Counted from the first letter of the stretch, positions 1,962-18,247 are shown. The stretch is DNA of 64,000 nt from Dermatophilaceae bacterium (GCA_035689185.1 DASSLY010000010.1:13036-77035); one strand, 5' to 3'. Notes: generated by a model from the sequence alone, not told the origin. Translations and numbers: made by a program.

Positions 1962-3473
1962 GTGGCTGACTGGCTGGACCGGCTGGACAGCCGCGTCGGC
2001 GACGGGCTGGAGGCCATGGTCTGCGCGCACCACCGGCGCCGGCTGGCTCGTCATGGCTGGTCAGCCATCCTGCCCCGAGGCGAACCGGGCCAGCGGGGCT
2101 GGGCTACGGACGGTCCCGGCGGCCCGGGCCTCGCGGGGCGGTGGTGGTCGCCGCTCGCCCCCGTCCGACCGGGCAACGACATACGCGTCCTGGTCGACGG
2201 TGCCCAGGTGTTGCCGGAGATCGAGCAGGCGATCCTCGGTGCCAAGCGCTTCGTGCACATCGCCGGCTGGCATGCCACGCCGGGGTTCCGGCTCACCCGA
2301 GCGCCCGGCGCCAGCTCGCTGCGCGACCTGCTCGCCGACGCGGCCCGCCGCGTGCCGGTGCGGCTGCTGCTGTGGGCCGGGCCGCCGTTGCCCGCGTTCG
2401 AGCCGACGCGGGGTGACGTCCGCCGGGTCGCCGCGCAGTTCTGCCGGGACAGCGACGTGCACTGCGCTCTGGACCGCCGCGAGCGACCCATGCACTGCCA
2501 CCACGAGAAGCTGGTCCTGGTCGACGACCAGGTCGCGTTCGTGGGCGGGATCGACCTCACCGACCTGCAAGGGGACCGTTACGACCACCCCGGCCATCAG
2601 CCGCACGGCGTACTGGGCTGGCACGACAGCGCCGCCGTCGTGCGGGGCCCGGTCGTCGGCGACGTGGCCCAGCACTTCCGCCTGCGATGGGCCGAGGTCA
2701 CCGGTGAGCGGGTTCCCGACGCCGTGGCACCCGACCCGGTGGGCGACACCGAGGTGCAGCTGTTGCGCACGGTTCCGGAGCGCGTCTATCGGTTCCGACC
2801 ACACGGCGAGTTCACCATCCTCGACGGCTACGTCCGGGCCCTGCGCCAGGCGCAGCGGCTGATCTACCTGGAAAACCAGTTCCTCTGGGCACCAGAGGTG
2901 GTCGACATCCTGATCGACAAGCTGCGCCGGCCGCCGACACCGGACCTGCGGGTGCTGCTCGTCCTGCCGGCGCGACCGAACAACGGAGCGGACACCACCC
3001 GCGGGCAGCTTGGCCGGCTGGTGCAGGCCGACGACGGCGCGCGGCGGCTGCTGGCGGTCACCGTGGCTGGCGTCACCTCGGACGGCGCGGCGGGTCCGCA
3101 ACGATCCGGCCCCGTCTACGTCCACTCCAAGGTTGGCATCGTCGACGACCGCTGGCTCACCGTGGGCTCGGCAAACCTCAACGGCCACTCCCTGTTCAAC
3201 GACACGGAAGTCAACCTCGCCATCTGCGACACCCGCCTGGTCGCCGAGACCAGGCTCGCGTTGTGGGCCGAGCACACCGGGGCGCCGGTGAGCCGGTTGC
3301 GTGGCTCCTCGACCGCACTCATCGACGACCTGTGGCGGCCGCTGGCGGAGGAGCAGACCCGACGGGTGGCAGCCGGGCTGCCCCGCACCCACGGGCTCAG
3401 CCTGCTCCGCGGCGTCTCCCGCCGGACCGAACGGCTGCAGGGACCGCTGCGCGGGCTGCTCGTCGACGGGTAG
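1962..3473 (+). CDS. phospholipase D family protein (two HKD motifs)
   Basis: 503 aa. First HKD is 'HCHHEKLVLVDDQVAFVGGIDL'. Second HKD is 'HSKVGIVDDRWLTVGSANLNGHS'. Confidence 0.85.
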   Translation: MADWLDRLDSRVGDGLEAMVCAHHRRRLARHGWSAILPRGEPGQRGWATDGPGGPGLAGRWWSPLAPVRPGNDIRVLVDGAQVLPEIEQAILGAKRFVHIAGWHATPGFRLTRAPGASSLRDLLADAARRVPVRLLLWAGPPLPAFEPTRGDVRRVAAQFCRDSDVHCALDRRERPMHCHHEKLVLVDDQVAFVGGIDLTDLQGDRYDHPGHQPHGVLGWHDSAAVVRGPVVGDVAQHFRLRWAEVTGERVPDAVAPDPVGDTEVQLLRTVPERVYRFRPHGEFTILDGYVRALRQAQRLIYLENQFLWAPEVVDILIDKLRRPPTPDLRVLLVLPARPNNGADTTRGQLGRLVQADDGARRLLAVTVAGVTSDGAAGPQRSGPVYVHSKVGIVDDRWLTVGSANLNGHSLFNDTEVNLAICDTRLVAETRLALWAEHTGAPVSRLRGSSTALIDDLWRPLAEEQTRRVAAGLPRTHGLSLLRGVSRRTERLQGPLRGLLVDG

Positions 3474-3474
3474 G

Positions 3475-4245
3475 TCAGCCGGCGAGCAGCACCTCGGTGC
3501 CGGTCCGCCCCAGCTGCTCCGCGATCGCCGGCGGCGGCCCGGCGTCGGTGACCAGGGTCGTCACGGAGTCATGTGGGCACAGCAGGACCGGCGCGGACGC
3601 GGCGAACTTGGTGTGATCGGCCAGCAGGACGACCTGGTCGGCAATCCCGATGAGGGCCAACTTGGTCGGTCGCTCGTTGTCGGTGGCGACGTAGACGCCG
3701 CGTTCGTCGACGGCCGCGGCACCCAGGAACAGGACGCGGACCCGCAGCCCGGCCGCGGCGTCGACGGTCATCTGACCCGCGAAGGCCTGGCTCTCCACCA
3801 GCAGCTCGCCGCCCAGGCCCACGACGCGCCCGGCACCTCGGTTGAGCAGCAGCTGCATGACCGGGATGGAATGGGTGACGACGGTGCCGGCGAAGGTGTC
3901 GGGCAGGGCCTGGGCCAGCGCGTACGTCGTCGTCCCGGCGTCGATGGCGATGCTGTCCCTGGGCTGCACCAGGTCGCGGGCACGCTCGGCGATGGCCCGC
4001 TTGGCCGCGGCGTCCAGGTTGGCTCGGCCGGTGAAGGCGGCGTTGTGCAGTGGCCCGTGCAGGGCGCTGACCCCGCCGCGACGGACGCGCACCTCTCCCC
4101 GCTCCTCGAGCTTGCGCAGGTCGCGGCGGACGGTCATGTCCGAGACGCCGAGGTCCCGGGTGAGGTCGGCAACCGAGACGAAGCCGCTCTCCCGCAGCGC
4201 CTCGAGAATCATCCGGCGGCGCGCAGGAGCGCTGTCGTAGCGCAT
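3475..4245 (-). CDS. DeoR/GlpR family transcriptional regulator
   Basis: N-terminal wHTH 'RRRMILEALRESGFVSVADLTRDLGVSDMTVRRDLRKLEERG' plus a C-terminal sugar-phosphate-sensor-like domain. ATG at 4245 is preceded by GGGAGAG; the ORF track starts at GTG 4260, so the start is ambiguous. Divergent from the sugar operon. Confidence 0.85.
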   Translation of the reverse strand: MRYDSAPARRRMILEALRESGFVSVADLTRDLGVSDMTVRRDLRKLEERGEVRVRRGGVSALHGPLHNAAFTGRANLDAAAKRAIAERARDLVQPRDSIAIDAGTTTYALAQALPDTFAGTVVTHSIPVMQLLLNRGAGRVVGLGGELLVESQAFAGQMTVDAAAGLRVRVLFLGAAAVDERGVYVATDNERPTKLALIGIADQVVLLADHTKFAASAPVLLCPHDSVTTLVTDAGPPPAIAEQLGRTGTEVLLAG

Positions 4246-4333
4246 GGCCTGCTCTCCCACGCTGTCTGCACGCTCCCTCCGGACGGCGCACGTCGGCCGC
4301 GTGCGTTGGATGAAGCCTAGGTCACATCAAGTG

Positions 4334-4361
4334 TTGACTTCCCAACAAATATTGTTAACCT
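4334..4361 (+). promoter_or_regulatory. putative promoter (TTGACT - 16 nt - TAACCT) overlapping an imperfect palindrome AACAAATATTGTT (4344..4356), a candidate DeoR operator
   Basis: The only AT-rich island in the deoR/kinase divergent intergenic region. -35 at 4334..4339 and -10 at 4356..4361. GAGGAG RBS at 4387..4392 precedes ATG 4398. Confidence 0.3.
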
Positions 4362-4397
4362 ACCAACAGTTGCACCGGGACGAACCGAGGAGCTGGT

Positions 4398-5306
4398 ATG
4401 GGGCAGGGTCGGCAGGGTCGGCACCAGGTCGTGTTCGTGGGGGCGGCAACGGTCGACTCCATCGCCCTGGTGGCGCGGTTCCCGCACCCGGACCAGCGGG
4501 TGGTGGCCGAGGAGCTCACCTCCGCCGGCGGCGGCCCCGCCGCCACGGCCGCGGTGGCCGCAGCCCGGCTCGGTGTCGACTGCGCCTTCATCGGCGCCGT
4601 CGGTGACGATCCCGACGGCCGGCGGATCGTCGCCGACCTGCAGGACGAGGGCGTCGACTGCTCGCTGGTGCGCGTCGCGGCGGGCCAGCGCTCCGGTGCC
4701 AGCGTCATCGTCGTGGACCGCGGGCGCGGCACCCGCGCCATCTGCGCGCGCCCTGGGCCGGACATCGAGGTGGCCCACGCTGCCCATGTCCTGCGCAGCG
4801 CCGACTGGGTGCACACCGACCACGCGGGCTGGGCATCCGTCACCGCCGTGCTGTCGCCAGAAGCCGGCGGCCCGCGGCTGTCGGTCGACGCAGGAAACCC
4901 GATTCCGGGTTTCAGCCCTCGTGGGGTGGACCTGTACGCGCCCACGGTGGCGGCGCTCCGCGCGAGCTACGGCGAGCTGGCGACCGAGGCGCTGCTCGAC
5001 GCCGCGCTGGCCGACGGGGCCGCCCGGGTCGTCGCCACCGACGGCGGCCGCGGCTGCTTCGGTGCGGACGCCGACGGGCAGCGAGCACACGCGCCCGGCG
5101 TCCCGGTGGAGGTGGTCAGCACGCTGGGTGCCGGTGACGTCTTCCACGGGGCGCTGGTCGCCGCCCACGTCCGCGGGCTGCGCCTCGGCCACGCCCTGCG
5201 TTACGCCAACGCCACCGCCGCCTTGTCCTGCCGGGGACTGGACGGGCGGTCCGCGATCCCCACCCACGACACCGTCGACGCGAGCCTGCGGGCCCGCACC
5301 GCCTAA
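4398..5306 (+). CDS. PfkB-family carbohydrate kinase (ribokinase-like; candidate ketose/sulfofructose kinase)
   Basis: 302 aa. N-terminal 'VVFVGAATVDSIA', 'GGGPAATAAVAAARLG', and C-terminal 'STLGAGDVFHGALVAA' (PfkB signature 2). Confidence 0.8.
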   Translation: MGQGRQGRHQVVFVGAATVDSIALVARFPHPDQRVVAEELTSAGGGPAATAAVAAARLGVDCAFIGAVGDDPDGRRIVADLQDEGVDCSLVRVAAGQRSGASVIVVDRGRGTRAICARPGPDIEVAHAAHVLRSADWVHTDHAGWASVTAVLSPEAGGPRLSVDAGNPIPGFSPRGVDLYAPTVAALRASYGELATEALLDAALADGAARVVATDGGRGCFGADADGQRAHAPGVPVEVVSTLGAGDVFHGALVAAHVRGLRLGHALRYANATAALSCRGLDGRSAIPTHDTVDASLRARTA

Positions 5307-5342
5307 GACCAGGCCGACACCGGATCGACCAGAGGAGACACC

Positions 5343-6251
5343 GTGACCAGGAGCACCCAGGCCGCTGCGACCGCAGGGCTGCCGGCGATCGCCCGCGAGA
5401 GCGGCGGCTTCGCCATGCTGGCCGTCGACCAGCGCGAGGCCATGCGCGCGATGTTCGCCGAGCACCAGCAGGCGCCGGTGACCGACGAGCAGCTGACCCG
5501 GTTCAAGGTGAGCGCGACCCGCGTGCTCAGCCCGTACGCCTCCGCAGTGCTCGTCGACAAGCAGTTCGCCTTCGACGCGGTGGTCGAGCAGGGCGCGGTC
5601 GACCCGTCCTGCGGCCTGATCGCCGCCGCGGACCGCTTCATCGCCGGCAACGGCGAGCTGGTCACCGACGTGGAGATCGACCTGGCCGTGGACCCGGTGG
5701 CGGTCCGCGAGCAGGGGGCGGTGGCGATGAAGCTCCTGGTCATCCACCGGCCCGACGGAGACCCCGCGGCGCGCGTCGAGATGGTGCGCCGGTTCGTTCA
5801 GCGCTGCCGGGAAGCCGGGCTGGTCAGCATCATCGAACCGGTCGCCAAGGCCCCCCGGGACGGGCGTCACTGGGACTGGGACGCCTGCGTCATCGAGGCG
5901 GCCCGCGAGCTGGGCGGCCTCGGCGCCGACCTGTACAAGGCCGAGGTGCCGCTGAGGGGCCAGGGGCAGGAGCGGGAGATCCGGCGCCGCTGCGCCCAGA
6001 TCACCGACGCGGTCTCCTCCCCCTGGGTGGTGCTGTCCTCCGGTGTCCCCGCCGGCATCTTCCCGCGTGCCGTCGAGCTGGCCTGCGCCGAGGGCGCGTC
6101 GGGCTTCCTGGCCGGACGCGCGGTCTGGGCGTCGGTCATCGGCAGCGACGACATCGAGCGCGACCTGCGCCAGGTGTCGGTCCCCCGCCTGCAGCGGCTG
6201 GCCGAGCTGGTCGACGTGGCCGTGTCGGCCAGGGCGGGTGGGGCGTGGTGA
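5343..6251 (+). CDS. class I aldolase of the LacD/YihT (tagatose-bisphosphate / sulfofructose-phosphate aldolase) family
   Basis: 302 aa. 'FAMLAVDQREAMRAMF' and 'DLYKAEVPL' (Schiff-base Lys context) are typical of the LacD-type family. GTG start with AGAGGAG upstream. Confidence 0.7.
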   Translation: MTRSTQAAATAGLPAIARESGGFAMLAVDQREAMRAMFAEHQQAPVTDEQLTRFKVSATRVLSPYASAVLVDKQFAFDAVVEQGAVDPSCGLIAAADRFIAGNGELVTDVEIDLAVDPVAVREQGAVAMKLLVIHRPDGDPAARVEMVRRFVQRCREAGLVSIIEPVAKAPRDGRHWDWDACVIEAARELGGLGADLYKAEVPLRGQGQEREIRRRCAQITDAVSSPWVVLSSGVPAGIFPRAVELACAEGASGFLAGRAVWASVIGSDDIERDLRQVSVPRLQRLAELVDVAVSARAGGAW

Positions 6252-7669
6252 GCGCGATCCCCCGCCCGCGCGTGGTCGTGGTCGCCACAGCCCGGCCCAC
6301 CTTCGCGGTGGACGTGGCCGCCCAGCGGGCCGGCGAGGCCCGGGCGCTGCTGGCCGAGCTGGGCGCCGACGTCACCGGCCCGCCCGGGCTGGTGATGACG
6401 CCGGACGACCTGGAGGCGGCCGCGGCATACGAGCTGTCCGACGCCGACCTCGTGGTGAACGTGTGTGCGTCCTTCTCCGACGCCAGCCCCGCACTGCGGC
6501 TGTACGCCCGGCTGGACGCCCCCGTCCTGCTCTGGTCGTTCCGCGAGCCCGGGCCGGTGGGTGACCGGCTCTGGCTGAACAGCCTGTGCGGGGCCAACCT
6601 CTTCGGCCACGCGCTCGTGGTGCACGCGGGGCGTACCCCGCGGCTGGTCTACGGCGACCCCAGCGAGCCGGCGGTGCGCGAGACGCTGCGACGGGCCCTG
6701 GCCGGCGAGCTGCCGTCCGTGCCGCCCCTGCCGAAGACGGTGGGGATCAGGTCCACGGACCCGGCCGCGGTGCGGGCGCGGGTGGAGACGCTGCGCGGCC
6801 GCACCCTCGGCCTGGTCGGCGACGCGCCCCCCGGCTTCACACCGAGCCAGTACGACCCGGCGCTGGTGGACAAGCTGTTCGGCATCGGGATCGAGCACGT
6901 CGTGGTCGAGGACATGTTCGCGCGGATCGCCAGCGTGCCCGAGCGGGTCCGGGACGCCGAGTATGCCGACGCGCTGGCTGCCCAGCCGTCGCTGGCCGCC
7001 GTCGACCCAGGCCAGGCGAAGCTGGCCGCCGGGATCACCACCGCGATGCGCGAATGGACCGAGCAGGCAGACCTGTCCGGGCTGGCCATCCGCTGCTGGC
7101 CCGAGTTCCCGACCACCCTTGGCGCCTGCCCGTGCTCGTCGCTGTCCCGGCTCGCCGATGCCGGCACGCCGACAGCCTGCGAGCGCGACGTCTACGGCGC
7201 CGTCACCATGATGCTGCTGGAGGCCCTCGGGTCCGGCACCACGTACCTGGTCGACACGGTCGACCTGGACGCGGACGCCAACGTGGTCCGCGTCTGGCAC
7301 TGCGGCGCAGCGGCGACCTCGCTGGCCGCGGACCCGGCTCAGGCGACGCAGTCGGTGCACTGCAACCGCAAGATCGGTGTCGCCGGGAACTTCCCGCTGC
7401 GCACCGGGCCGGTCGTGCTGGCCCGCCTCACCGAGAACCCCGCCGACGGCGGCCTTCGCCTGCTCATCGCCGCCGGCGAGTCGCTGCCCGAGCCGAACCG
7501 CTTCCAGGGCAACACCGCCGCAGTCCGGCTGGAGACCCCGGCCGCGGAACTCGTGCAAACCCTTGTCAGCGGTGGCTTCCCGCACCACACGGTCCTGTCC
7601 TGGACCGACGTGCGCCCCGCCCTGCGCACCGCCGCCGACCAGCTCGGCATACCCGTCATCGAGTGGTGA
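6245..7669 (+). CDS. L-fucose/L-arabinose isomerase family protein (candidate aldose-ketose isomerase of the locus)
   Basis: 474 aa. 'LNSLCGANLFGHAL', 'IRCWPEFPTTLGACPCSSLSRLADAGTPTACERDVYGAV', 'VWHCGAAA' and 'GGFPHHTVL' resemble the short actinobacterial fucose-isomerase-like family. The start overlaps the aldolase stop (GTGGTGA). Confidence 0.65.
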   Translation: MVSAIPRPRVVVVATARPTFAVDVAAQRAGEARALLAELGADVTGPPGLVMTPDDLEAAAAYELSDADLVVNVCASFSDASPALRLYARLDAPVLLWSFREPGPVGDRLWLNSLCGANLFGHALVVHAGRTPRLVYGDPSEPAVRETLRRALAGELPSVPPLPKTVGIRSTDPAAVRARVETLRGRTLGLVGDAPPGFTPSQYDPALVDKLFGIGIEHVVVEDMFARIASVPERVRDAEYADALAAQPSLAAVDPGQAKLAAGITTAMREWTEQADLSGLAIRCWPEFPTTLGACPCSSLSRLADAGTPTACERDVYGAVTMMLLEALGSGTTYLVDTVDLDADANVVRVWHCGAAATSLAADPAQATQSVHCNRKIGVAGNFPLRTGPVVLARLTENPADGGLRLLIAAGESLPEPNRFQGNTAAVRLETPAAELVQTLVSGGFPHHTVLSWTDVRPALRTAADQLGIPVIEW

Positions 7670-7712
7670 CCGTGCCCGACCGCAGCCATCACCCGTCGCT
7701 AAGGAGCCAGCC

Positions 7713-9038
7713 ATGACCCACATCCCACGCCAGCTCAGCCGGCGCCACATCCTGCGCGGCGCGGCGCTGGCCGGCGCCGGCGTGCTCGCCACCGCCTGCG
7801 CCGGTCCGGGCACCGTCCGGGGCAACGGGCGCGGGCCCGCCGGCCAGGTGACCGCGCCAGCCCCGGTCGGCACCGCGCCCGTCCGGGGCGCGATCTCGTT
7901 CGCGCACTGGCGGGCCGAGGACAAGGCGGTGTTCGACACAATCATCAAGGCCTTCGCCGAGGCCAACCCCGGCGCCTCGGTGCGCCAGGACATCTCGCCG
8001 TCCAACGACTACCAGAGCACGGCGCTGCAGAAGCTCAAGGGCGGCTCCATCGGCGATGCCTTCACCGCCTTCCGCGGCGCCCAGTTCGTCGCGATGACCA
8101 AGGCCGGCCTGTTCGAGGACCTCTCGGCCCAGACCTTCGCGGACAACTACCTGCCGAAGATGGCCCGGGGCGGCAAGGACGCCGCCGGCCGTCAGCTGGG
8201 CTTGCCCTACCAGCTGGTGTTCAACATGCCGATCTACAACGTGGCGCTGTTCGAGCGGGTCGGGATCAGCGAGAGGCCGACGGACTGGGACGGCTTCCTG
8301 TCCCTGTGCGACAAGCTCAAGTCCGCCGGGGTCGTCCCGCTGGCCTGGCCCGGAGGTGAGCCCGCGAACGCCGGGCAGCTGTTCAACTCCATGATCATGA
8401 ACAACCAGCCGAGCGACACCAGCTGCGCCGACATCGAGGCCGGCAAGGCCAAGCTCACCGACGACTGGTTCCTGGCCACGCTGAAGCAATACGCCCAGCT
8501 GCGCGAATTCGTCGAGCCGAACGCCACCGGGACCGCCTCCGAGCCGCTGCAGCAGCTGTTCGCTACCGGCAAGGCGGGAATGCTGGCCACCGGGTCGTTT
8601 CACCTGGCGGCCGTCCGCAAGCTGGGGGCGAGCTTCCCGATGGACCTGATCGCGCCGATCACCGTGGCGGCGGGCAAGGCGAAGTACGAGGGGATCCACA
8701 ACGCGACGTTCATCCTCGGCGTGAACTCCGCGTCCAGGAAGCAGGACACGGCGCTGAAATTCCTCGACTACCTCTCCCAGCCCGACGTCGCCTCGGCCTA
8801 CGCGAACGGCACGGGCCAGCACCTGACGGTGGAGGGTGTCAAGTACACCAACCGCGACCTCAAGGCGACGCAGCCGTGGCTGACCCGTAACACCATGCTC
8901 GCTCCGCGCTTCCAGTTCCTCGACTTGGATCTGCGTGCCGCGGTAGAGAACTCGGCCACCGAGGTGATGGGCGGCAAGGACCCCGCCGCCGCGGCCGAGA
9001 GCGCCCAGCGCATCGTCGACCAGCGCCGGAAGTCCTGA
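7713..9038 (+). CDS. ABC transporter sugar-binding lipoprotein (family 1 SBP)
   Basis: ATG 7713 follows AAGGAG. Signal peptide/lipobox 'RRHILRGAALAGAGVLATAC'. Body is typical of carbohydrate SBPs. Confidence 0.85.
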   Translation: MTHIPRQLSRRHILRGAALAGAGVLATACAGPGTVRGNGRGPAGQVTAPAPVGTAPVRGAISFAHWRAEDKAVFDTIIKAFAEANPGASVRQDISPSNDYQSTALQKLKGGSIGDAFTAFRGAQFVAMTKAGLFEDLSAQTFADNYLPKMARGGKDAAGRQLGLPYQLVFNMPIYNVALFERVGISERPTDWDGFLSLCDKLKSAGVVPLAWPGGEPANAGQLFNSMIMNNQPSDTSCADIEAGKAKLTDDWFLATLKQYAQLREFVEPNATGTASEPLQQLFATGKAGMLATGSFHLAAVRKLGASFPMDLIAPITVAAGKAKYEGIHNATFILGVNSASRKQDTALKFLDYLSQPDVASAYANGTGQHLTVEGVKYTNRDLKATQPWLTRNTMLAPRFQFLDLDLRAAVENSATEVMGGKDPAAAAESAQRIVDQRRKS

Positions 9039-9040
9039 CC

Positions 9041-10010
9041 GTGGCCGCCCCCGTCACCGCCACCGCCCCGCGGACCGACGAGCGCCCCAGGCCGTTGAGC
9101 TCACTGCTCGGCCCCCGGCCGAAGGGCTCCCGGGCCAACCGCCCGCACCCGGCGCTGTTCCTCTTCCCGCTGCCCGCGCTGGTCCTGTACGTCGTCTTCT
9201 TCGCCATCCCCACCCTGGAGGCGGTGCGCTACGCCGTCACCGACTGGGACGGCTTCAGCGCCGACTACCAGGACGTGGGGGTGTCCAACTTCGCCACCAT
9301 CGCCACGGCGGACGACCTGTTCCGCAACGCGCTGTTCAACAACGTCAAGTTCATGCTGGTCGTCGTCGTCTTCCAGACGCTGTTCTCGCTGGTGCTGGCG
9401 GTCTTCCTGGTCAAGAACAGCCGCAGCTCAGTGCTGCTCCGCTCGCTCTACTTCTTCCCGACCATCCTCAGCTCGGTGTCGGTCGCGTTCATCTGGAAGT
9501 TCGTCTACGACCCCAACTTCGGGCTGCTCAACACCTTCTTCGGCGCGGTCGGACTGGACGGGCTGAAGAGCGCGTTCCTCGGCGACGACACAAAGGCCAT
9601 CTACTTCGTGGCGGTGACCCAGGTGTGGTTCCACGTCGGTCAGATGATGGTCATCTATGTCGCCGGCCTGCAGCAGATCCCGGCCGAGCTGTACGAGTCG
9701 GCCACGGTGGACGGCGCCTCCCGCTGGCAGCTGTTCCGTCACGTCACCTGGCCGATGGTGGCGCCAGCCACCGGGATCGTCATCGCCTACACCACCGTCC
9801 AGAGCTTCAAGTCCTTTCGACCTGATCCTCGGCCTGGGCGGAAACCCGCCGAAGCCGTCCCTGGACATCCTGTCCACCCGCATCTACGCCGGCTTCGCCA
9901 ACTCCCAGTTCGGCTACGCCGCAGCGGAGTCCATCATCTTCATGCTCGTCATCGCACTCGTCACCTGGCTGCAGCGCCGCGCCGTGCGCCGCACGCAGGG
10001 TTCGGTCTAG
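9041..10010 (+). pseudogene. carbohydrate ABC transporter permease (MalF/UgpA-like) interrupted by a +1 frameshift near 9815
   Basis: The N-terminal 258 codons are in the frame of ORF 9041..10162 ('...TTVQSFKSF'). The conserved C-terminus 'DLILGLGGNPPKPSLDILSTRIYAGFANSQFGYAAAESIIFMLVIALVTWLQRR' is in the frame of ORF 9657..10010. The junction is 'aag tcc ttt cga cct', where one extra T in a TTT run breaks the frame. Confidence 0.8.
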
Positions 10011-10020
10011 GAGGGCCGCC

Positions 10021-10836
10021 ATGGGCTATAACCTCACCCGCCGGGGGGTGCTGTTCGTGTATGCCGTGCTGGTGGTCGTCCCGCTCGCGGTCGTCATCGC
10101 CGGCACCTTCAAGACCACCCAGGAGCTGTTCGCCTCCCCGTTCGGGCTGCCGAGCAGCCTGAAGACAACCAACTACACCAGCGTCCTGGGCGAGAACGGC
10201 CTCGGCCAGGCTTTCGTGAACAGCGTTGTCGTCACAGCCTGCTCGGTGCCACTGACGCTGTTCATCGGCAGCCTCGCAGCCTACGGCGTGTCCCGGATCC
10301 CTGGCTGGCGCGGTGGGCTGATCTATGGCTTCCTGGTCCTGGGGATGGCGGTCCCGGCCCAGGCCAACATGATCCCGCAATACGTGCTCTTCGACCTGCT
10401 CGGGCTCACGAACAACCTGCTCGGATTGATCCTGATCAACATCGTGGTGACGCTGCCGATCGCGGTGTTCATCATGGCCGGGTTCCTCAAGACGCTGCCC
10501 CGGGAGATGTACGAAGCGACCGCGATCGACGGCTCCGGCCCATGGCGGACCTACCGGTCGGTCATCCTGCCGCTGTCGGTCCCGTCCCTGGCTGCCACGG
10601 CGATCTTCTTGTTCGTCATCCACTGGAACGACCTGCTCTACCCCCTGCTGTTCATCCAGGAGCCGACCAGGCAGACGCTGCCCGTGGCGCTGCTGTCGTT
10701 CCAGGGCGAGTTCCTCACCGACTACCCCCTGCTGTTCACCGGGGTCGTCGTGGCGTCCACCCCGATCGTGCTGGCCTACGTCTTCCTCCAACGCTACTTC
10801 GTCGCCGGCATCACCGCCGGCTCGGTGAAGGGCTGA
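10021..10836 (+). CDS. carbohydrate ABC transporter permease (MalG/UgpE-like)
   Basis: 271 aa, 6-TM pattern. EAA-loop-like 'EMYEATAIDGSGPWRTYRSVILP'. Confidence 0.85.
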   Translation: MGYNLTRRGVLFVYAVLVVVPLAVVIAGTFKTTQELFASPFGLPSSLKTTNYTSVLGENGLGQAFVNSVVVTACSVPLTLFIGSLAAYGVSRIPGWRGGLIYGFLVLGMAVPAQANMIPQYVLFDLLGLTNNLLGLILINIVVTLPIAVFIMAGFLKTLPREMYEATAIDGSGPWRTYRSVILPLSVPSLAATAIFLFVIHWNDLLYPLLFIQEPTRQTLPVALLSFQGEFLTDYPLLFTGVVVASTPIVLAYVFLQRYFVAGITAGSVKG

Positions 10837-10841
10837 CCGGC

Positions 10842-13151
10842 ATGGCAGGCACCCTGCTGCTGCGGCGGGTCAGCGGCGTCCACATCGACGACGGCGACGT
10901 CCGCGTCGGCATCGACGCGCTGCCCGGCGTGCAGCTTGGGGTGATGCCGGGCTGGCTGAGCGGCGAGCCCCTGCTGGAGCAGGGCGTCGAGACCACGATG
11001 CCCAACCTGCCAGACCTCGACCTGCCGCCGACCGACGCGGTGCCCTACCAGCTGCGGGTGGGAGCGCCGGCGCCCGGGGTCCTGCGGCTCACGCTGGCGC
11101 CGGCCGGCGCGCCGGTGCTGGAGGACGACGGCAGCTGGCTGGGCATCGTCACCGACCCGGCCCCCCAGGCCACCGGCCTGGACGTCCGGGAGTCCGCGGG
11201 CGAGGTGGTCGTCATCGCGGCGGGGGCGCGGTTGCGGATCGGCCGGGCGCCGTTCACCCTCACCCTGGAGGACCCGGAAAGCGGCCGCACGCTGCTGCGC
11301 TCAGCGCACCGGCTGCGCCAGGTGGCCGGCCGGATGATGGCCCCGACCGCGCTCGCCGACGGGGCCGGGCTGACCCTGCACCTGGAGCTCGGCACGAGCG
11401 AGGACATCCTCGGTTTCGGCGAGCAGTTCGGCCGGCTGGTCAAGAACGGCCAACAGCTCACGCTGCGCAGCGAGGACGCCTGCGGCACCGGGACCGGACT
11501 GGCGTACAAGCCGGTCCCGGTGTGGCAGTCCACCTGCGGCTACACCGGATTCGTCAACACCGGCGCGGTCGTGACCGCCGACGTCGGCCACTCCCGGCCG
11601 TCGGTCCTGGCGCTCACGGTCGCCGACGAGGCGCTCGACCTCTACCTGGTCGCCGGCGAGGACCCGAAGGCCAGGCTGACCGCATACACCGCCCTGACCG
11701 GCCGTGCGCAGGTGCCGCCGGTGTGGGCCTTCGGCTACTGGATGGGGCGCTGCCGCTACCACTCCCGCGAGGAGGTGCTGCAGGTCGCGCGGACCATGCG
11801 CGAACACCGGGTGCCGCTGGACGTGCTGCACCTGGACCCGGACTGGCTGGTCGTCGACCGGCTCAACTGCGACTTCATCTGGAACGAGGAGCGGTTCGGC
11901 AACCGCCGCGAGTTCGTGGCGGCACTGGCCGAGAACGGAGTGCGGCTTTCGGTCTGGGAGCTGCCGTATCTGGACCCGGCCAGCCCGCGGTTCGCCGAGG
12001 CCGCGGACAAGGGCTACCTGGTGCGGCGTGCCGACGGGACCCTGGCAGCCATCCAGAACACCCCCACCCCGGACGGGCGGACGCGCGCCTTGGTCGACTT
12101 CACCAACGGCGACGCCCGCGCCTGGTGGCAGGGGATGCACGAGGCATTCCTCGATGACGGCGTGGCCGTGTTCAAGACCGACTTCGGCGAGGCCCTGCCG
12201 GACGACGTCGCGCTCGACGACGGGACCCCCGCCAACCACGCGCACAACCTGTACCCGTTGCGGTACAACGGAACTGTCAGCGAGGCCATCGCCCGCTCGA
12301 CCGGCCGGGCCCCGCTGGTGTGGGGGCGCAGCGGCTGGGCCGGGTCTCAGCGGTACCCCGGCCAGTGGGGCGGCGACGCCGAGTCCACCGTCGCGGGCAT
12401 GCAGGCCACCCTGCGCGGCGGACTGTCGTATGCCGTGAGCGCACCCGGTTTCTGGAGCCACGACATCGGCGGCTTCTTCGGTCCCGAGCTCACCCCGGCG
12501 CTGTACGTGCGGTGGACCCAGATGGGTGCCCTCTCGCCGCTGATGCGCGCGCACGGCCTGCGCCCGCGCGAGCCCTGGCAGTTCGGCGAGCGGGCCCTGG
12601 AAGTCGCCCGGCGGTGGGTGCGGCTGCGGTACGAACTGCTGCCCACGCTGTGGCAGGTGGCCAACGAGGCCGCCGCGAAAGGGTGGCCGGTGATGCGCCC
12701 GCTCGGGTTGGAGTTCCCGCACGACCGGGTGGCCCAGTCCGTCGACGACTCGTTCATGGTCGGCTCCGACCTGCTTGTCGTGCCGGTGTTCGACGACGGG
12801 GACGGCCCGGTCAGGCGCACCTTCTACCTGCCCGACGGGCGCTGGCACGACCTGCTCGACGGCACCGCATACACCGGCCCCGGCTTCCACCAGGTGGAGG
12901 TGCCGCTGGAGACGATGCCTGTGCTCGTCCGCAGCGGTGCCGTGCTGGCCCGGGTACCCGTCGACGACACGGTCCGCGGCACCGACGACCTGCTCGGCCG
13001 GCCCTGGCAGCTGCACGCCTACGGGGCCCCCACCGACCGTGACCTCACGCTCGTCGGCTTCGACGGGAGCAGGACCCGGGTCCGGATCGCCGGCGGGCGG
13101 GCCACCGGGCAGGGCAGCCAGCCGGTGGACCCGCGGGTGCGCCGTGGCTGA
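10842..13151 (+). CDS. glycoside hydrolase family 31 (alpha-glucosidase/alpha-xylosidase-like)
   Basis: 769 aa from ATG 10842. 'VFKTDFGE' (nucleophile Asp context) and 'WGGDAEST' (acid/base context). 'LHLDPDWLVVDRLNCDFIWNEERF' resembles the YicI-type segment. Confidence 0.85.
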   Translation: MAGTLLLRRVSGVHIDDGDVRVGIDALPGVQLGVMPGWLSGEPLLEQGVETTMPNLPDLDLPPTDAVPYQLRVGAPAPGVLRLTLAPAGAPVLEDDGSWLGIVTDPAPQATGLDVRESAGEVVVIAAGARLRIGRAPFTLTLEDPESGRTLLRSAHRLRQVAGRMMAPTALADGAGLTLHLELGTSEDILGFGEQFGRLVKNGQQLTLRSEDACGTGTGLAYKPVPVWQSTCGYTGFVNTGAVVTADVGHSRPSVLALTVADEALDLYLVAGEDPKARLTAYTALTGRAQVPPVWAFGYWMGRCRYHSREEVLQVARTMREHRVPLDVLHLDPDWLVVDRLNCDFIWNEERFGNRREFVAALAENGVRLSVWELPYLDPASPRFAEAADKGYLVRRADGTLAAIQNTPTPDGRTRALVDFTNGDARAWWQGMHEAFLDDGVAVFKTDFGEALPDDVALDDGTPANHAHNLYPLRYNGTVSEAIARSTGRAPLVWGRSGWAGSQRYPGQWGGDAESTVAGMQATLRGGLSYAVSAPGFWSHDIGGFFGPELTPALYVRWTQMGALSPLMRAHGLRPREPWQFGERALEVARRWVRLRYELLPTLWQVANEAAAKGWPVMRPLGLEFPHDRVAQSVDDSFMVGSDLLVVPVFDDGDGPVRRTFYLPDGRWHDLLDGTAYTGPGFHQVEVPLETMPVLVRSGAVLARVPVDDTVRGTDDLLGRPWQLHAYGAPTDRDLTLVGFDGSRTRVRIAGGRATGQGSQPVDPRVRRG

Positions 13152-14232
13152 CCGCTGGGACGACCTGCCGGAGAAGCTGGGCGGTCTGTGCCGGATCGCC
13201 GCCGAGGCCGGCCTGGACACACTGGTTCTGCGCGAACCGGCCACCCTGGCTTGGTTGTTCGAAGCCCGGGTGCACGTCCCTCTGACTCTGGACGCGGCCT
13301 GCCTGGAGGCGGTGGTGCACGTGGCGGACCCGCCGGGGCTGACCGTGGTGACGAATGCGATCGAGGCTCCCCGGCTGCAGGACACCGAGCTGGCCGGGCT
13401 GCCCGCCGAGTGGCTCGTCCTGCCTTGGTGGCAGCCCCGCGACGCCGCCCTGCCGACCGGCCCACAGGTCGGCGGCGACCGGCCGGGCCTGGGCACCGTT
13501 GACGTGCGGGCCGGTGTCGCCGCCGTGCGCCGCGTCCTCACCCCGCGGCAGCGCGACCTGCTGGCGGCGGTCGGCCGCGACGCGGCCTGCGCGGCCACCC
13601 GGACCGCGCTGCGGGTCACACCAGCGACCAGCGAGTATGCCGCGGCCGGACTGTTCGCCGCGGAACTGATGAGTGCCGGCATGGACCCGGTCGTGCTCAT
13701 GGTCGCCGGCGGGACACGCGGCGGGCGGCACCGGCATCCGCTGCCGACGGCGGACCCGGTGGGATCGCGGGCGATGCTCGTCTGCTGCGCCCGGCGGGAC
13801 GGCCTGATCGCCAGCGTCACCCGGATCGTGAGCTTCGACCCGCTTTCCCGCGCCCAGGAGGACACCTACCGGCGACTGCTGCTGGTGGAGCGGGCCTTCC
13901 TCGACGCCACCCAGCCCGGCACCCAGCTGGCGGCGGCGTTCTCAGCCGGCGCCGCGGCATACCGGGCTCAGGGCTTCGACCCGCAGGAGTGGCACCGGCA
14001 CCACCAAGGCGGGCTGTCCGGGCTGCAGCCGCGGGAGTTCCCGGCCCACCACGACAGCGAGGTGGTTCTGCGGGAGGGGATGGTCGCCGCCTGGAACCCC
14101 AGCGCCGCCGGCTGGAAGGTGGAGGACACCGCCGTGATCCGCGCCGGCGGGCCGGACCTGCTGGTCCACGACCCGGAGTGGCCCTGCGTCGAGGTGGGCG
14201 GCCGCGCCCGGCCCGGCGTTCTCCTGCGCTGA
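13144..14232 (+). CDS. M24-fold (creatinase / Xaa-Pro peptidase-like) protein with apparently degenerate metal ligands
   Basis: GTG 13144 overlaps the GH31 stop (GTGGCTGA). The pita-bread-fold-like C-terminal half contains 'HRHHQGGLSG' and 'VEDTAVI'. By-eye alignment puts 'LVCCARRDGLIASVTR' where the two Asp ligands normally sit, and 'AAWNPS' where an 'EP' Glu ligand is expected. Confidence 0.6.
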   Translation: MADRWDDLPEKLGGLCRIAAEAGLDTLVLREPATLAWLFEARVHVPLTLDAACLEAVVHVADPPGLTVVTNAIEAPRLQDTELAGLPAEWLVLPWWQPRDAALPTGPQVGGDRPGLGTVDVRAGVAAVRRVLTPRQRDLLAAVGRDAACAATRTALRVTPATSEYAAAGLFAAELMSAGMDPVVLMVAGGTRGGRHRHPLPTADPVGSRAMLVCCARRDGLIASVTRIVSFDPLSRAQEDTYRRLLLVERAFLDATQPGTQLAAAFSAGAAAYRAQGFDPQEWHRHHQGGLSGLQPREFPAHHDSEVVLREGMVAAWNPSAAGWKVEDTAVIRAGGPDLLVHDPEWPCVEVGGRARPGVLLR

Positions 14233-14261
14233 CCGCCGTACCGCAACCACAAGGAGCACAC

Positions 14262-15689
14262 GTGAGCATCACCGCGCTGCCGTTGATCGACGGACGCTGG
14301 GAGACACCGGAGCACGTCGTCGACGTCGTCAACCCCGCCACCGGGACCGTGGCCGGACGCCTCGGCTGGGGCGGCCCCGGGGACGCCGTGCGCGCGGCCG
14401 ACGCCGCCGCCCGCGCGCTGCCGTCCTGGGCGGCCCGGCCCGCCCGCGCCCGGGCGGACCTGCTCCGCGAGGCCGCTGAGCTGCTGGCGGCCCGCGCGGA
14501 GACGATCGGCCGGCTGCTCGCGGCCGAGGCCGGCAAGCGGCTGCCGGAGGCGGTGGGCGAGGTCGCCTTCTCGGCGGAGTACCTCCGCTGGTTCGCCGAG
14601 CAGGCCAGGCGCCCCGAGGGGCAGGTCATCCCGCACGAGGCCCCGGGACGGCGGCACCTGACGATCCGCCGTCCGGTGGGCGTCGTCGCCAGCCTGACCC
14701 CGTGGAACTTCCCCTGCTCCATCCAGGCCCGGAAACTGGCCCCGGCGCTCGCCGCCGGGTGCACGGTCGTCGCCCGGGTCTCGGAGAAGGCGCCGCTCGC
14801 GGTCACCGAGATGGTCCGCTGCCTGGTGGAGGCGGGGATCCCGGCGGGGGTGGTCAACCTGGTGCACGGCCCGGCGCGGGAAGTGACCCAGGCCCTGCTG
14901 GACCATCGGGCCGTGCGCGCGGTCAGCTTCACCGGCTCCACCGAGGTGGGGCGGCAGATCATGGCCTCGGCGGCACGGCGCATCGTGCGGCCGCTGCTGG
15001 AGCTCGGCGGCGACGCGGCCTTCGTCGTGTTCGAGGACGCCGACCTGGACGCCGCGGTGGAGGGGGCGATGCTGGCCAAGTTCCGCAACACCGGTCAGTC
15101 GTGCATCGCCGCGAACCGGTTCGTCGTCCACGAGCCCGTCTACGACGAGTTCGTCTCCCGGCTGGTCAAGGCCGTGGACGCGATGACCGTCGGCGACGGG
15201 CTCGCCGACCCGTGCCCCGACCTGGGTCCGGTGATCGACCGGAGCCGGGTGCTGGCCGTGCAGGGACTCGTCGACCAGGCCCTGCAGGCAGGTGCGACCC
15301 GGCTCACCCGCGTGGCCGAGCTGCCCTCCCACGGCACGTATGTCGCGCCGACGCTGCTCGCCGACGTGCCCGGCGACGCGGCGATCGGGCGCACCGAGGT
15401 GTTTGGACCCGCCGCCGCCGTCTTCCCGTTCCGGGACGAGGACGAGGCGGTCGCGCGCGCCAACGCCACCGAGATGGGCCTGGCCGGGTACTTCTGGTCA
15501 CGCGACGTCGGGCGCGTGTGGCGGATGGCGGAACGGCTGGAGGTCGGCATCGTCGGCGCGAACAACGCCCTGCCCACCGTGTGCTTCGCGCCGATGGGCG
15601 GGGTGAAGCAGTCCGGCCTGGGCCGCGAGGGCGCCGACGCGGGGCTGGCGGAGTTCCAGGACGTCGGCTACGTCGCGCTCGGGCTGTGA
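14262..15689 (+). CDS. NAD(P)+-dependent aldehyde dehydrogenase, succinate-semialdehyde dehydrogenase (GabD)-like
   Basis: GTG 14262 follows AAGGAG. 'SLTPWNFP', 'FTGSTEVG', 'ELGGDAAFVVF' and 'FRNTGQSCIAANRF' (catalytic Glu and Cys contexts). Confidence 0.85.
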   Translation: MSITALPLIDGRWETPEHVVDVVNPATGTVAGRLGWGGPGDAVRAADAAARALPSWAARPARARADLLREAAELLAARAETIGRLLAAEAGKRLPEAVGEVAFSAEYLRWFAEQARRPEGQVIPHEAPGRRHLTIRRPVGVVASLTPWNFPCSIQARKLAPALAAGCTVVARVSEKAPLAVTEMVRCLVEAGIPAGVVNLVHGPAREVTQALLDHRAVRAVSFTGSTEVGRQIMASAARRIVRPLLELGGDAAFVVFEDADLDAAVEGAMLAKFRNTGQSCIAANRFVVHEPVYDEFVSRLVKAVDAMTVGDGLADPCPDLGPVIDRSRVLAVQGLVDQALQAGATRLTRVAELPSHGTYVAPTLLADVPGDAAIGRTEVFGPAAAVFPFRDEDEAVARANATEMGLAGYFWSRDVGRVWRMAERLEVGIVGANNALPTVCFAPMGGVKQSGLGREGADAGLAEFQDVGYVALGL

Positions 15690-15699
15690 CGGGGGCGAG

Positions 15700-16422
15700 A
15701 TGACCGCCGACCTGGTGCTGCTGCCGCTGGGGGTGGTGGCCGGCGCCGTCACCCAGCGGGTCACCGGCATCGGCTTCGCCCTGGTCAGCGCGCCCCTGCT
15801 GGTGCTGGTCGCGGGGCCGTTCGACGGCATCATCCTGTCCAACATCCTGGGCCTGCTCGTCAGCGCCGTGGTGCTGGCCAGCACGTGGCGGCACGCGCAG
15901 TGGCGGCGCGGCGCGCTGCTGGCCCTGCCGGCGCTGGCCGCCATCCCGCTCGGCGCGCTGGTCGCGCGGCGGGTGCCGGGGCCGGTCCTGCTCGTCCTCA
16001 TCGGCAGCCTGGTGCTGGTCGCGCTGGCGCTGGTGCAGCTCAGCCCCCGGGCGCGCATCCTGCGCGGCCGCCGGGGAGCCGTGGCCGCCGGCGCGGCCAG
16101 CGGATTCATGAACGTCACCGCCGGGGTGGGCGGCCCGGCGATCGTCCTGTATGCGGTGAGCACGGCCTGGGAGCACCGGCGCTTCGTCGCGACGTTCCAG
16201 TACTACTCGGTCATGGTCAACCTGGCCTCGCTGCTCGTCAAAGGCGCGCCGAGCCTGCCCGGCTCAGCCCTGCTGGTGTCCGTGGCGGCGCTGGCGGTGG
16301 GCCTTGCCGGGGGGGAAGTCCTGTCCCGACGGGTCAGCCCGGAACGCGCCAGCCGGGCCGTCCTAGTGCTGGCCACCGCCGGCGCGCTGTCGACGGTGGT
16401 CAAGGGTGTGGTCTCCTGGTGA
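15700..16422 (+). CDS. TauE/SafE (TSUP) family anion/sulfonate exporter
   Basis: 240 aa polytopic membrane protein. 'VTGIGFALVSAPLL' and 'NVTAGVGGPAIVLY' are the paired TSUP repeats. Confidence 0.75.
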   Translation: MTADLVLLPLGVVAGAVTQRVTGIGFALVSAPLLVLVAGPFDGIILSNILGLLVSAVVLASTWRHAQWRRGALLALPALAAIPLGALVARRVPGPVLLVLIGSLVLVALALVQLSPRARILRGRRGAVAAGAASGFMNVTAGVGGPAIVLYAVSTAWEHRRFVATFQYYSVMVNLASLLVKGAPSLPGSALLVSVAALAVGLAGGEVLSRRVSPERASRAVLVLATAGALSTVVKGVVSW

Positions 16423-16540: not shown

Positions 16541-18247
16541 ATGACATCGAGCGCCCAGCTGGGTCCGGAGCAGCGGCAGCGTGCGTGGGCGGAGCTCGGT
16601 TCCGGGGAGTTCGACGTCCTGGTCATCGGGGGCGGGGTGACCGGTGCCGGCGTGGCGCTGGACGCGGCCACGCGCGGCCTGCGGACCGCACTCGTGGAGG
16701 CCCGCGACTACGCCAGCGGCACCTCGTCCCGGTCGAGCAAGCTGTTCCACGGCGGCCTGCGGTACCTGGAGCAGCTCGACTTCGGCCTGGTCCGTGAGGC
16801 CCTGCGAGAACGGGAGCTTATGCTGACCCGGATCGCGCCGCACCTGGTCCGGCCGGTGCCGTTCCTCTACCCGCTGACCCGGCGCGGGTGGGAGCGCCCC
16901 TACGTGGGTGCCGGCCTGATGTTGTACGACACGCTCGGGGGGACCAGCTCGCTGCCACGGCACCGCCACCTGACCCGCCGTGCCGCGCGGGCGCTGTGCC
17001 CGTCGCTGCGCCGCGACGCGCTCGTCGGCGCGGTCCTCTACTACGACGCCCAGGCCGACGACGCCCGGCATACCCTCGCGGTGGTCCGCACCGCGGCCCG
17101 CTACGGCGCGGTCGTGCGCAGCTCGACCGAGGTCACCGAACTGGCCCGCAGCGGCGGGCGGGTCGTCGGCGCGACAGTGCGCGATGTCGAGTCGGGACTC
17201 ACCGCGCACGTGCGCGCCAAGGTCGTGATCAGCTGCGCGGGCGTCTGGACCGACGACATCCAGCGCCTCACCGGCGCCCGGGGGCGGTTCAACGTGCGTG
17301 CCTCCAAGGGGATCCACCTGGTCGTGCCCCGGGACCGGATCGCCTCGGAGACCGGCCTGATCCTGCGCACCGAGCGCTCCGTGCTGTTCGTCATCCCATG
17401 GGGTAACCGGTGGCTCATCGGCACGACCGACACCGACTGGGACCTGGACAAGGCCCACCCGGCGGCCACCCGGGCCGACATCGACTACCTGCTGCTGCGG
17501 GTCAACAAGGTGCTGTCCATCCCGTTGCGCCGCGAGGACATCCTCGGCGTGTACGCCGGGCTGCGCCCGCTGCTGTCAGGGGAGTCCGAGGACACCAGCC
17601 AGCTCTCGCGGGAGCACTCGGTGTCCCGGCCGGTGCCGGGACTGGTGGCCGTGGCGGGCGGGAAATACACGACCTACCGGGTGATGGCCCGCGACGCGGT
17701 GGAGGTCGCGGCGGCCGACATCGGGCACCCCCTGCCTCCCTGCGTCACCGACCACACTCCCCTCGTCGGCTCCGACGGTTACCAGGCGCTGGCCAACTCC
17801 GCGGAGGCCCACGCCGCCGAGCACAACATCCCGCCGTGGCGATACCGGCGGCTGCTGGACCGGTTCGGCAGCGAGGCCGGTGACGTCCTGGCCGCGGGTG
17901 CGGACAACCCGGCGCTGCTGGAGCCGGTCCCCGGCGCCGACGACTACCTGATGGCCGAACTGCACCGCGCGGTCACCCACGAGGGAGCCCTGCACCTGGA
18001 CGACCTGTTGACCAGGCGGACGCGGATCTCCATCGAAACCGGACACCGCGGGGCCGGGTCGGCGCAGGCGGTGGCGGAGGTCGTCGCCGGCGTCCTCGGG
18101 TGGGACCAGCCGACCATCAGCAAGGAGGTGGACAGCTACCTGTCCCGGGTTGCGGCGGAACGAGCCTCCCAGGACGCCGAGCTCGACGCCGATGCCATCA
18201 GCAGGCGCCTGACGGCCATCGACATCAGGCAGCCGCTGCGCATGTGA
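16541..18247 (+). CDS. glpD: FAD-dependent glycerol-3-phosphate dehydrogenase
   Basis: 568 aa. 'DVLVIGGGVTGAGVALDAATRGLRTALVEARDYASGTSSRSSKLFHGGLRYLE' is the classic GlpD N-terminus. Confidence 0.85.
   Translation: MTSSAQLGPEQRQRAWAELGSGEFDVLVIGGGVTGAGVALDAATRGLRTALVEARDYASGTSSRSSKLFHGGLRYLEQLDFGLVREALRERELMLTRIAPHLVRPVPFLYPLTRRGWERPYVGAGLMLYDTLGGTSSLPRHRHLTRRAARALCPSLRRDALVGAVLYYDAQADDARHTLAVVRTAARYGAVVRSSTEVTELARSGGRVVGATVRDVESGLTAHVRAKVVISCAGVWTDDIQRLTGARGRFNVRASKGIHLVVPRDRIASETGLILRTERSVLFVIPWGNRWLIGTTDTDWDLDKAHPAATRADIDYLLLRVNKVLSIPLRREDILGVYAGLRPLLSGESEDTSQLSREHSVSRPVPGLVAVAGGKYTTYRVMARDAVEVAAADIGHPLPPCVTDHTPLVGSDGYQALANSAEAHAAEHNIPPWRYRRLLDRFGSEAGDVLAAGADNPALLEPVPGADDYLMAELHRAVTHEGALHLDDLLTRRTRISIETGHRGAGSAQAVAEVVAGVLGWDQPTISKEVDSYLSRVAAERASQDAELDADAISRRLTAIDIRQPLRM

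Follow-up and report, generated by a model that had tools for sequence, protein, structure and literature searches.

The plant sulfosugar sulfoquinovose (SQ), whose production is quoted as ~10 billion tonnes a year (PMC10755693, PMC12890257), is degraded through several described gene clusters, and hybrids between two versions of the sulfo-Embden-Meyerhof-Parnas pathway (sulfo-EMP1/2) have been reported in Actinobacteria (Sharma 2023, PMC10665668). Here we compare with these systems a locus at positions 3475-16422 of a 64,000-nucleotide stretch from a Dermatophilaceae bacterium (GCA_035689185.1, DASSLY010000010.1:13036-77035), hereafter called the window, in which a DeoR-family regulator gene diverges from genes for a kinase, an aldolase, an isomerase, an ABC importer, a GH31 glycosidase, a Peptidase_M24-like protein, an aldehyde dehydrogenase (ALDH) and a TauE-family membrane protein. 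Judged by sequence comparison, this locus is probably (about 0.85) a hybrid sulfo-EMP1/2 sulfoglycolysis operon for SQ, with sulfolactate as the excreted product.

The published hybrids resemble the window in their class I YihT aldolase, PfkB kinase, DeoR/CsqR-like regulator, SqvD-type isomerase and sulfolactaldehyde (SLA) dehydrogenase. According to a survey of csqR neighbourhoods, Streptomyces sp. WMMB 322 has sqvD as a substitute for yihS (Sci Rep 2024, PMC10991401), and the locus of this strain (L034/L092) was found to be syntenic with the window. In the text available from these two sources (PMC10665668, PMC10991401), the mosaic is described bioinformatically and neither a non-YihQ GH31 nor an M24-like gene is addressed; compared with the clusters as presented there, the window adds TauE and a frameshifted permease. 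The gene mosaic is not new, and the GH31 glycosidase and the M24-like protein are its two uncharacterised components.

A modified sulfo-EMP pathway with a GabD-type SLA dehydrogenase, an ABC importer and, in strain AK04, TauE has been described in Arthrobacter spp. AK01 and AK04, where sulfolactate excretion was shown experimentally (Kaur et al. 2022, PMC8873060). These actinobacterial clusters share all of these features with the window, but they employ a YihS isomerase and the NAD-dependent sulfoquinovosidase SqgA (GH188; PMC10755693), whereas the window has an SqvD-type isomerase and a GH31 glycosidase. The E. coli yih system (YihQRSTUV, CsqR) passes through the intermediates predicted here, and the window shares with it an orthologous aldolase (53% identity) as well as a kinase (35%) and a regulator (31%) of the same families. 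However, YihS, YihR, YihU and the major facilitator superfamily transporters are missing from the window, its GH31 protein, at 28% identity to YihQ, has neither W304 nor Y508, and its end product would be oxidised (sulfolactate), while that of E. coli is reduced (2,3-dihydroxypropane-1-sulfonate). The sulfo-EMP2 pathway of Bacillus (Alkalicoccus) urumqiensis likewise has an SqvD-type, FucI-family SQ isomerase and the option of an SLA dehydrogenase (Liu et al. 2021, reviewed in PMC9594981), whereas its PfkA-family kinase SqiK, class II aldolase SqiA and putative mutarotase SqvB are all absent from the window.

Enzymes of the predicted pathway

The aldolase is clearly the best-supported pathway assignment and the strongest marker of the locus, being predicted as a YihT-type class I sulfofructose-1-phosphate aldolase. 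In a PDB search it matched the sulfofructose-phosphate aldolase 7AG1 at 4.4e-91 and the best tagatose-bisphosphate aldolase at 3.5e-17. The Schiff-base lysine of YihT (Lys193) and the residues of its phosphate/sulfonate pocket (Ser226, Ser227, Arg253 and Ala26; PMC8006165) are all kept in the window protein, as K199, S232, S233, R259 and A33, and these positions are invariant in 53 of 53 relatives.

For the isomerase the sole NCBIfam match was the model for the SQ isomerase SftI (NF048012, 1.5e-83, 281 bits), no FucI or AraA model being matched, and a sequence search against the PDB gave no match. The invariant E313, D337 and H448 map to the Mn ligands of FucI (E337, D361 and H528), with identical Glu-Asp spacing and at a low hhalign probability (8.9%). 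On these comparisons the gene encodes a putative SQ isomerase of the SqvD/SftI type, the known FucI-family solution to SQ isomerisation (PMC9594981). No match to the YihS family (PF07221, GlcNAc 2-epimerase) was found anywhere in the genome (95.7% complete) or in any related locus. An earlier reading of the window from its sequence alone (the sequence-only reading) had proposed that a fucose-isomerase-family enzyme replaces YihS; the replacement stands, but it is no novelty, since both the SqvD/SftI solution and, as far as the available text of two of the sources goes, the hybrid pathway had been published (PMC9594981, PMC10665668, PMC10991401).

The best PDB match of the PfkB protein was the sulfofructose (SF) kinase YihV (7AG6, 1.6e-33, 35% identity). 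YihV carries its catalytic Asp244 in a GXGD motif and binds the sulfonate by a K27-N109-R138 triad (PMC8006165). Its sugar-binding Asp and Ser and its catalytic Asp (D13, S95 and D244) are kept in the window protein as D20, S102 and D247 (GAGD), and we regard the enzyme as a YihV-like putative SF kinase. The aldehyde dehydrogenase matched E. coli GabD at 429 bits and the SLA dehydrogenase RlGabD (8C54) at 366 bits. In RlGabD a Cys295/Glu261 dyad, the oxyanion residue Asn163 and the proposed sulfonate binders Arg171 and Arg289 have been described (10.1101/2023.03.13.532361); all five residues were found in the window protein at a constant offset, invariant in 37 family members, and the enzyme is annotated here as a putative SLA dehydrogenase. 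No SuyB-family gene was found in the genome, so that excretion of sulfolactate would fit.

The TauE protein covers profile positions 2-235 of 237 of PF01925 with 76.9 bits (cut-off 32.6) and is considered a putative sulfolactate exporter. It is one of five TauE proteins encoded in the genome and the most divergent of them; the other four genes (contigs C4, C23, C96 and C105) scored 142-155 bits, against 76 for the operon copy. Among related clusters TauE follows the ALDH gene in only a minority. The sequence-only reading had taken TauE as the strongest pointer to a sulfonate product; given this distribution and the five TauE genes of the genome, we rejected it as a decisive clue. The same reading had tentatively linked the adjacent glpD to the pathway. 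A spacer of 118 nt, in which no terminator is recognisable, separates TauE from the gene for this GlpD-type glycerol-3-phosphate dehydrogenase. No GlpD was found in any related locus within the fetched flanks, including loci with ~8 kb downstream of ALDH, and glpD was rejected as part of the system because its adjacency recurs in none of them.

When the isomerase, the M24-like protein and the GH31 protein were used as queries, ~50 distinct actinobacterial loci were recovered, carried by Intrasporangiaceae, Kribbella, Actinomadura, Pseudonocardia, Micromonospora, Streptomyces, Georgenia and others; Pedococcus cremeus, Phycicoccus sp. Soil748 and Kribbella caucasensis are examples of cultured carriers. 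Most of these loci have the gene order DeoR, kinase, aldolase, isomerase, solute-binding protein, permease, permease, GH31, M24, ALDH, and its recurrence in so many loci argues that the order is not due to chance. Some loci differ by exchanges of single functions. In two metagenome-assembled genomes (MAGs; L077/L078, Propionibacteriaceae/Actinomycetes) a PFK-family (SqiK-type) kinase stands in for PfkB and a beta-hydroxyacid dehydrogenase for ALDH, while TauE is kept; in L047/L048, L049 and L059 the GH31 gene is absent and an SqgA/GH188 homologue is present, the one in L048 matching the solved Arthrobacter SqgA at 2e-106. These swaps are non-orthologous displacements of the kind described for sulfo-EMP1/2 in the available parts of PMC10665668 and PMC10991401. 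The sequence-only reading had joined an EMP-type upper pathway to a GabD-like dehydrogenase and an exporter, and this combination is borne out by the intact YihT residues, the SftI-only match of the isomerase, YihV as top match of the kinase and these pathway-type swaps.

The two variant types were also characterised for their content. L077 and L078 (9932-21068 in the latter) comprise genes for the M24-like protein, TauE, the beta-hydroxyacid dehydrogenase, the PFK-family kinase, a YihT aldolase, an SqvD isomerase, an ABC importer and GH31. The beta-hydroxyacid dehydrogenase of L078 was rejected as a bona fide YihU (29% identity, N174 and S178 seemingly not conserved). The SqgA variant L048 (7709-17461) is a ~10-kb island between map and rpsD/rpoA of a freshwater Actinomycetota MAG, with genes for the M24-like protein, SqgA (GH188), an SqvD-type isomerase, GntR, PfkB, a GD_AH (SuyB-family) protein, a 2-hydroxyacid dehydrogenase, an Ldh_2 (ComC-family) protein and a PF03601 transporter. 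This island, in which no aldolase was seen, may represent an SQ route with sulfolactate desulfonation.

In the window's own family, a YihT-type aldolase was present in 8 of 120 sampled genomes, for which reason the operon is regarded as an accessory trait. The hybrid route is thus common across families and patchy within this one.

The GH31 glycosidase and the M24-like protein

The GH31 protein, encoded by the sole GH31 gene of the genome, keeps the nucleophile (D447) and the acid/base (D512). Against PDB structures it scored 340 bits with the alpha-xylosidase YicI (1WE5) and 132-152 bits with YihQ and AtSQase; among NCBIfam models, PRK10658 gave 478 bits and the YihQ model PRK10426 243 bits, against a cut-off of 553. 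Of the YihQ triad Arg301-Trp304-Tyr508 (Q/E-RWY motif) only the arginine is kept (R340), W304 being replaced by Cys/Thr and Y508 by Phe545. It was therefore rejected as a YihQ-type (GH31_13) sulfoquinovosidase on account of its YicI-like scores and the loss of this triad; the family named by the sequence-only reading is right, but not the YihQ class with which it had been equated. A plain YicI was rejected as well, because F277 and W380 of YicI are replaced by invariant Arg305 and Thr407. Invariant R305, R340 and T407 occupy the places of YicI F277, Q314 (W315 adjacent) and W380, and of the best 150 representatives (50% identity) only those of the clade linked to such clusters, plus one relative at 49% identity, show this R-R-T signature. 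A homologous-protein search returned close actinobacterial relatives only; the nearest relatives outside such clusters are proteins of Actinomycetota, Chloroflexota and Armatimonadota, and the ten representatives looked up come from these phyla and NC10, none from Alteromonas.

A second, YicI-like GH31 clade, SqgH, was reported in 2025 from marine Gammaproteobacteria as a proven sulfoquinovosidase that cleaves sulfoquinovosyl glycerol (SQGro) without an RWY motif, R302, T377, K412 and F513 being its predicted SQGro binders (PMC12780224). Like the window protein, SqgH is GH31_3/YicI-like, ~28% identical to YihQ and devoid of the Q/E-RWY motif. R340, T407, K445 and F545 of the window protein are of the same type and order as these binders and similarly spaced, the match being one of published positions; among them, the Arg and the Thr set the window clade apart from YicI. 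By published description, however, SqgH is confined to Gammaproteobacteria with sulfo-SDO clusters, whereas the window protein is actinobacterial. Since it is the only GH31 of the genome, keeps its slot across families and has a distribution complementary to that of SqgA, the best reading of this protein is a putative non-canonical sulfoquinovosidase.

The M24-like protein was modelled with AlphaFold2 from a 14-sequence alignment at a predicted local distance difference test score of 90.9, and the model has the two-domain fold of prolidase, creatinase and ectoine hydrolase (DoeA), at a template modelling score of ~0.75. In a profile alignment to prolidase 5CDL the five M24 ligands Asp, Asp, His, Glu and Glu correspond to Cys, Ser221, Gly287, Asn315 and Glu324, so that one of five is kept, and with four of the metal ligands lost the protein is not expected to be a dinuclear metallopeptidase. 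What the sequence-only reading had called M24-like thus has a prolidase/creatinase-like fold, but not the metal site of that family. Invariant Arg and His residues are numerous and include those of an EWHxHHQGG motif.

All homologues of at least 53% identity lie within this type of SQ cluster, and one 46% homologue stands directly upstream of sqgA and an SqvD-type isomerase gene, in the freshwater island between map and rpsD mentioned above; the M24-like protein thus travels with SQ genes under either glycosidase. It is dispensable in some lineages, since the loci of Streptomyces, Nonomuraea and Georgenia alba lack its gene. A literature search yielded no publication linking M24 proteins with SQ. 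The protein is probably an accessory specific to SQ clusters that acts early on SQ or its glycoside; a mutarotase-like role is speculation.

Locus layout, regulation and transport

The window lies on contig C10 of a 3.83-Mb assembly of 130 contigs with 7% contamination, a draft or MAG by appearance, and has a G+C content of ~73%. Genes were called from an open reading frame listing together with Pfam and NCBIfam scans, and every gene named by the sequence-only reading was recovered in the order it had given (Table 1). Its overlapping stops and starts were found at two junctions, aldolase/isomerase (GTGGTGA, 6245-6251) and GH31/M24 (GTGGCTGA, 13144-13151); at the remaining junctions the gaps are 2-43 nt and Shine-Dalgarno-like sequences are present. 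The plus-strand genes form one tightly packed operon, divergent from the DeoR gene. The upstream flank (1962-3473) encodes a two-HKD phospholipase-D-like protein and the downstream flank (18417-19745) a PASTA-domain protein, neither with operon linkage in relatives.

Table 1. Coordinates of the genes and operator-like sites of the locus and of the neighbouring glpD
Feature	Position	Strand	Basis
DeoR-family regulator (HTH_DeoR + DeoRC)	3475-4260	-	PF08220 + PF00455
Two tandem operator-like palindromes	TGTTGACTTCCCAACA 4332-4347; TGTTAACCTACCAACA 4353-4368	+	conserved in DeoR-kinase spacers
PfkB-family kinase, putative SF kinase	4398-5306	+	PF00294
DeoC/LacD class I aldolase, predicted YihT orthologue	5343-6251	+	Pfam, PDB 7AG1
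Fucose_iso_C protein, predicted SqvD/SftI-type (FucI-family) SQ isomerase	6245-7669	+	PF02952, NF048012
SBP_bac_1, CUT1-type solute-binding lipoprotein	7713-9038	+	PF01547/PF13416
BPD_transp_1 permease 1 (MalF-type), frameshifted	9041-10010	+	Pfam
BPD_transp_1 permease 2 (MalG-type)	10021-10836	+	PF00528, full length
GH31 glycosidase, YicI-like (GH31_3-like) actinobacterial clade	10842-13151	+	three GH31 Pfam domains
Peptidase_M24-like protein	13144-14232	+	PF00557, 1.7e-10
Aldedh, GabD-like aldehyde dehydrogenase	14262-15689	+	PF00171, 2e-150
TauE/TSUP-family membrane protein	15700-16422	+	PF01925, 76.9 bits
GlpD (neighbour)	16541-18247	+	Pfam/NCBIfam scans

The DeoR protein is no closer to E. 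coli CsqR (31% identity) than to other DeoR paralogues, although it has both a helix-turn-helix and a sensor domain and is encoded divergently from the operon, as expected of a CsqR; its gene is kept at the same position in nearly all related loci. An alternative ATG at 4245 would give the protein the conserved N-terminus MRYDS. The palindromes between this gene and the kinase gene have the form TGTTG-N6-CAACA and overlap a putative promoter with -35 TTGACT (4334-4339) and -10 TAACCT (4356-4361), 16 nt apart. The motif is kept in most of 47 DeoR-kinase spacers from related loci of many families, and in the 3.83-Mb genome it occurs at these two sites only (reversed-pattern control, 0). A consensus promoter/terminator scan of this 73% GC DNA gave nothing useful, and the promoter call is based on the conservation of the spacer. 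We infer that the DeoR protein binds and represses at the tandem palindromes. In the Terrabacter-type loci L010 (~1-300 of the extracted DeoR-kinase spacer) and L018, a short tandem repeat with CGGACCCCGGAT-like units was observed at the 5' end of the DeoR gene, which, if translated, would extend the DeoR N-terminus.

The solute-binding protein has a signal sequence with a twin-Arg-like SRRHILRG and a LATAC lipobox. Two details of the transporter were absent from the sequence-only reading: no ABC ATPase gene was found within the operon, a MalK/MsiK-type ATPase gene being located elsewhere in the genome, and permease 1 is frameshifted. A single additional T in the run at 9815-9817 (TTT instead of TT), missing from every relative aligned, causes a +1 frameshift, after which the protein continues into an unrelated Arg/Pro-rich tail; its Pfam match stops at profile position 113 of 184. 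The normal C-terminus is encoded in the other frame, with its stop at 10008-10010, and past the shift the sequence retains 80-88% identity to relatives. The extra T is either a homopolymer error of the draft assembly or a very recent inactivation, and unless it is a sequencing error, import through this ABC system is broken.

The genes for the solute-binding protein and both permeases (window 8001-11000) have a G+C content of 0.67, below that of the genes on either side (0.72-0.77). Their identity is 81-88% to the counterparts in an Actinomycetota MAG (L003) and in Kribbella (L006/L007), but only 61-75% to those in the Intrasporangiaceae to which the enzymes are most similar. Because of the lower G+C and the different closest relatives, it is suggested that the transporter module was exchanged by recombination.

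Taken in order, the predicted steps would be as follows. A CsqR-like DeoR repressor would occupy the two operators over the promoter until a sulfosugar effector releases it. The CUT1 ABC system, powered by the MsiK-type ATPase encoded elsewhere, would import SQGro and/or SQ, and the GH31 enzyme, judging from its slot and active-site signature, may free SQ from the glycoside. The SqvD/SftI-type isomerase, probably Mn-dependent, would convert SQ into SF, which the PfkB kinase would phosphorylate to sulfofructose-1-phosphate (SFP) and the YihT-type aldolase would split into dihydroxyacetone phosphate, destined for glycolysis, and SLA. Finally, the GabD-like dehydrogenase would oxidise SLA to sulfolactate, to be exported by TauE.

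Competing readings and significance

A number of observations weigh against a hybrid sulfo-EMP operon for SQ. The isomerase score of 281 bits is far under the SftI equivalog cut-off of 700, and the sulfonate triad of YihV is absent as such from the kinase: K27 is replaced by an invariant Arg (R34), which keeps the basic character, N109 by A117 (Asn in 27 of 52 relatives), and R138 falls within a deletion of ~10 residues. Sequence fails to tell the ALDH from a succinate-semialdehyde dehydrogenase, with which the RlGabD residues are shared. The solute-binding protein barely resembles the SQGro-binding protein SmoF (7NBZ; 5e-4, marginal), and the frameshift in permease 1 may disable the system in this genome. 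The GH31 protein lacks two residues of the YihQ triad, is closer to YicI, and is publicly annotated as alpha-D-xyloside xylohydrolase (alpha-xylosidase). Of the known SQ mutarotases, neither the YihR type (PF01263) nor SqvB (PF16161) was detected in the genome, the latter search being uninformative on absence as it was blank in 14 of 14 control genomes too.

Such a GH31 name, the YicI scores, the FucI C-terminal domain of the isomerase and the LacD/DeoC family of the aldolase would also suit an operon for a neutral sugar or glycoside (an alpha-xyloside, a xyloglucan oligosaccharide, fucose, rhamnose, quinovose or tagatose), the ALDH then making lactate or a similar acid. This is very improbable: the aldolase matches YihT with ~240 bits more than any tagatose-bisphosphate aldolase and has an intact sulfonate/phosphate pocket, FucI and AraA models fail to match the isomerase where SftI does, both xylose-packing residues of YicI have given way to invariant Arg and Thr, the SQ-specific SqgA takes the place of GH31 in sister clusters, and TauE lies within the operon. 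An improbable, though less remote, alternative is that another sulfonated or anionic 6-substituted sugar or glycoside is the substrate, and that GH31 and the M24-like protein process a distinct conjugate before the sulfo-EMP core. The GH31 signature of R305, R340 and T407 in place of the RWY motif, a solute-binding protein unrelated to SmoF, and an enzyme-like M24 protein with its invariant Arg and His beside the glycosidase all speak for such a substrate. The YihT and SqvD core enzymes, however, indicate SQ, SF and SFP themselves, SqgA, which substitutes for GH31 in sister clusters, acts on SQ glycosides, and SqgH demonstrates that a second GH31 clade without RWY can act on SQGro (PMC12780224).

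The extra T in permease 1, set against every relative aligned, raises a different question, namely whether the locus is an SQ pathway by descent that is decaying or inactive here, a fresh pseudogene-bearing remnant in which import is abolished. We consider this unlikely, if appreciably less so than a change of substrate. The shifted frame with its Arg/Pro-rich tail favours it, but all other genes are intact, the sequence past the shift stays similar to relatives and, in the other frame, still codes for the usual C-terminus, and draft- or MAG-like assemblies such as this one often contain homopolymer miscalls. The preferred reading remains a hybrid sulfo-EMP operon for SQ, by which a soil-type actinobacterium most likely imports the plant sulfosugar.

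A doubtful extension is that the locus holds two new sulfosugar enzymes, the R305/R340/T407 GH31 clade being a further, independently arisen lineage of sulfoquinovosidases and the M24-like protein the catalyst of an early unassigned step. If this were true, the GH31 clade would stand apart from YihQ (GH31_13) and perhaps also from the marine SqgH, and would be mis-annotated as alpha-xylosidase in hundreds of genomes; the M24-like protein could, for example, stand in for the missing YihR/SqvB mutarotases by interconverting SQ anomers, or process an SQ conjugate.

The identity of SQ-degrading soil bacteria and the sulfonate that they produce matter for sulfur and carbon cycling, and the locus extends the carriers of the actinobacterial hybrid sulfo-EMP route by one. 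In these clusters the GH31 gene, systematically annotated as alpha-xylosidase, is probably unfit as a marker of xyloglucan use, and the conserved pita-bread-fold protein without a metal site is a defined and testable candidate for a function still missing from SQ catabolism.

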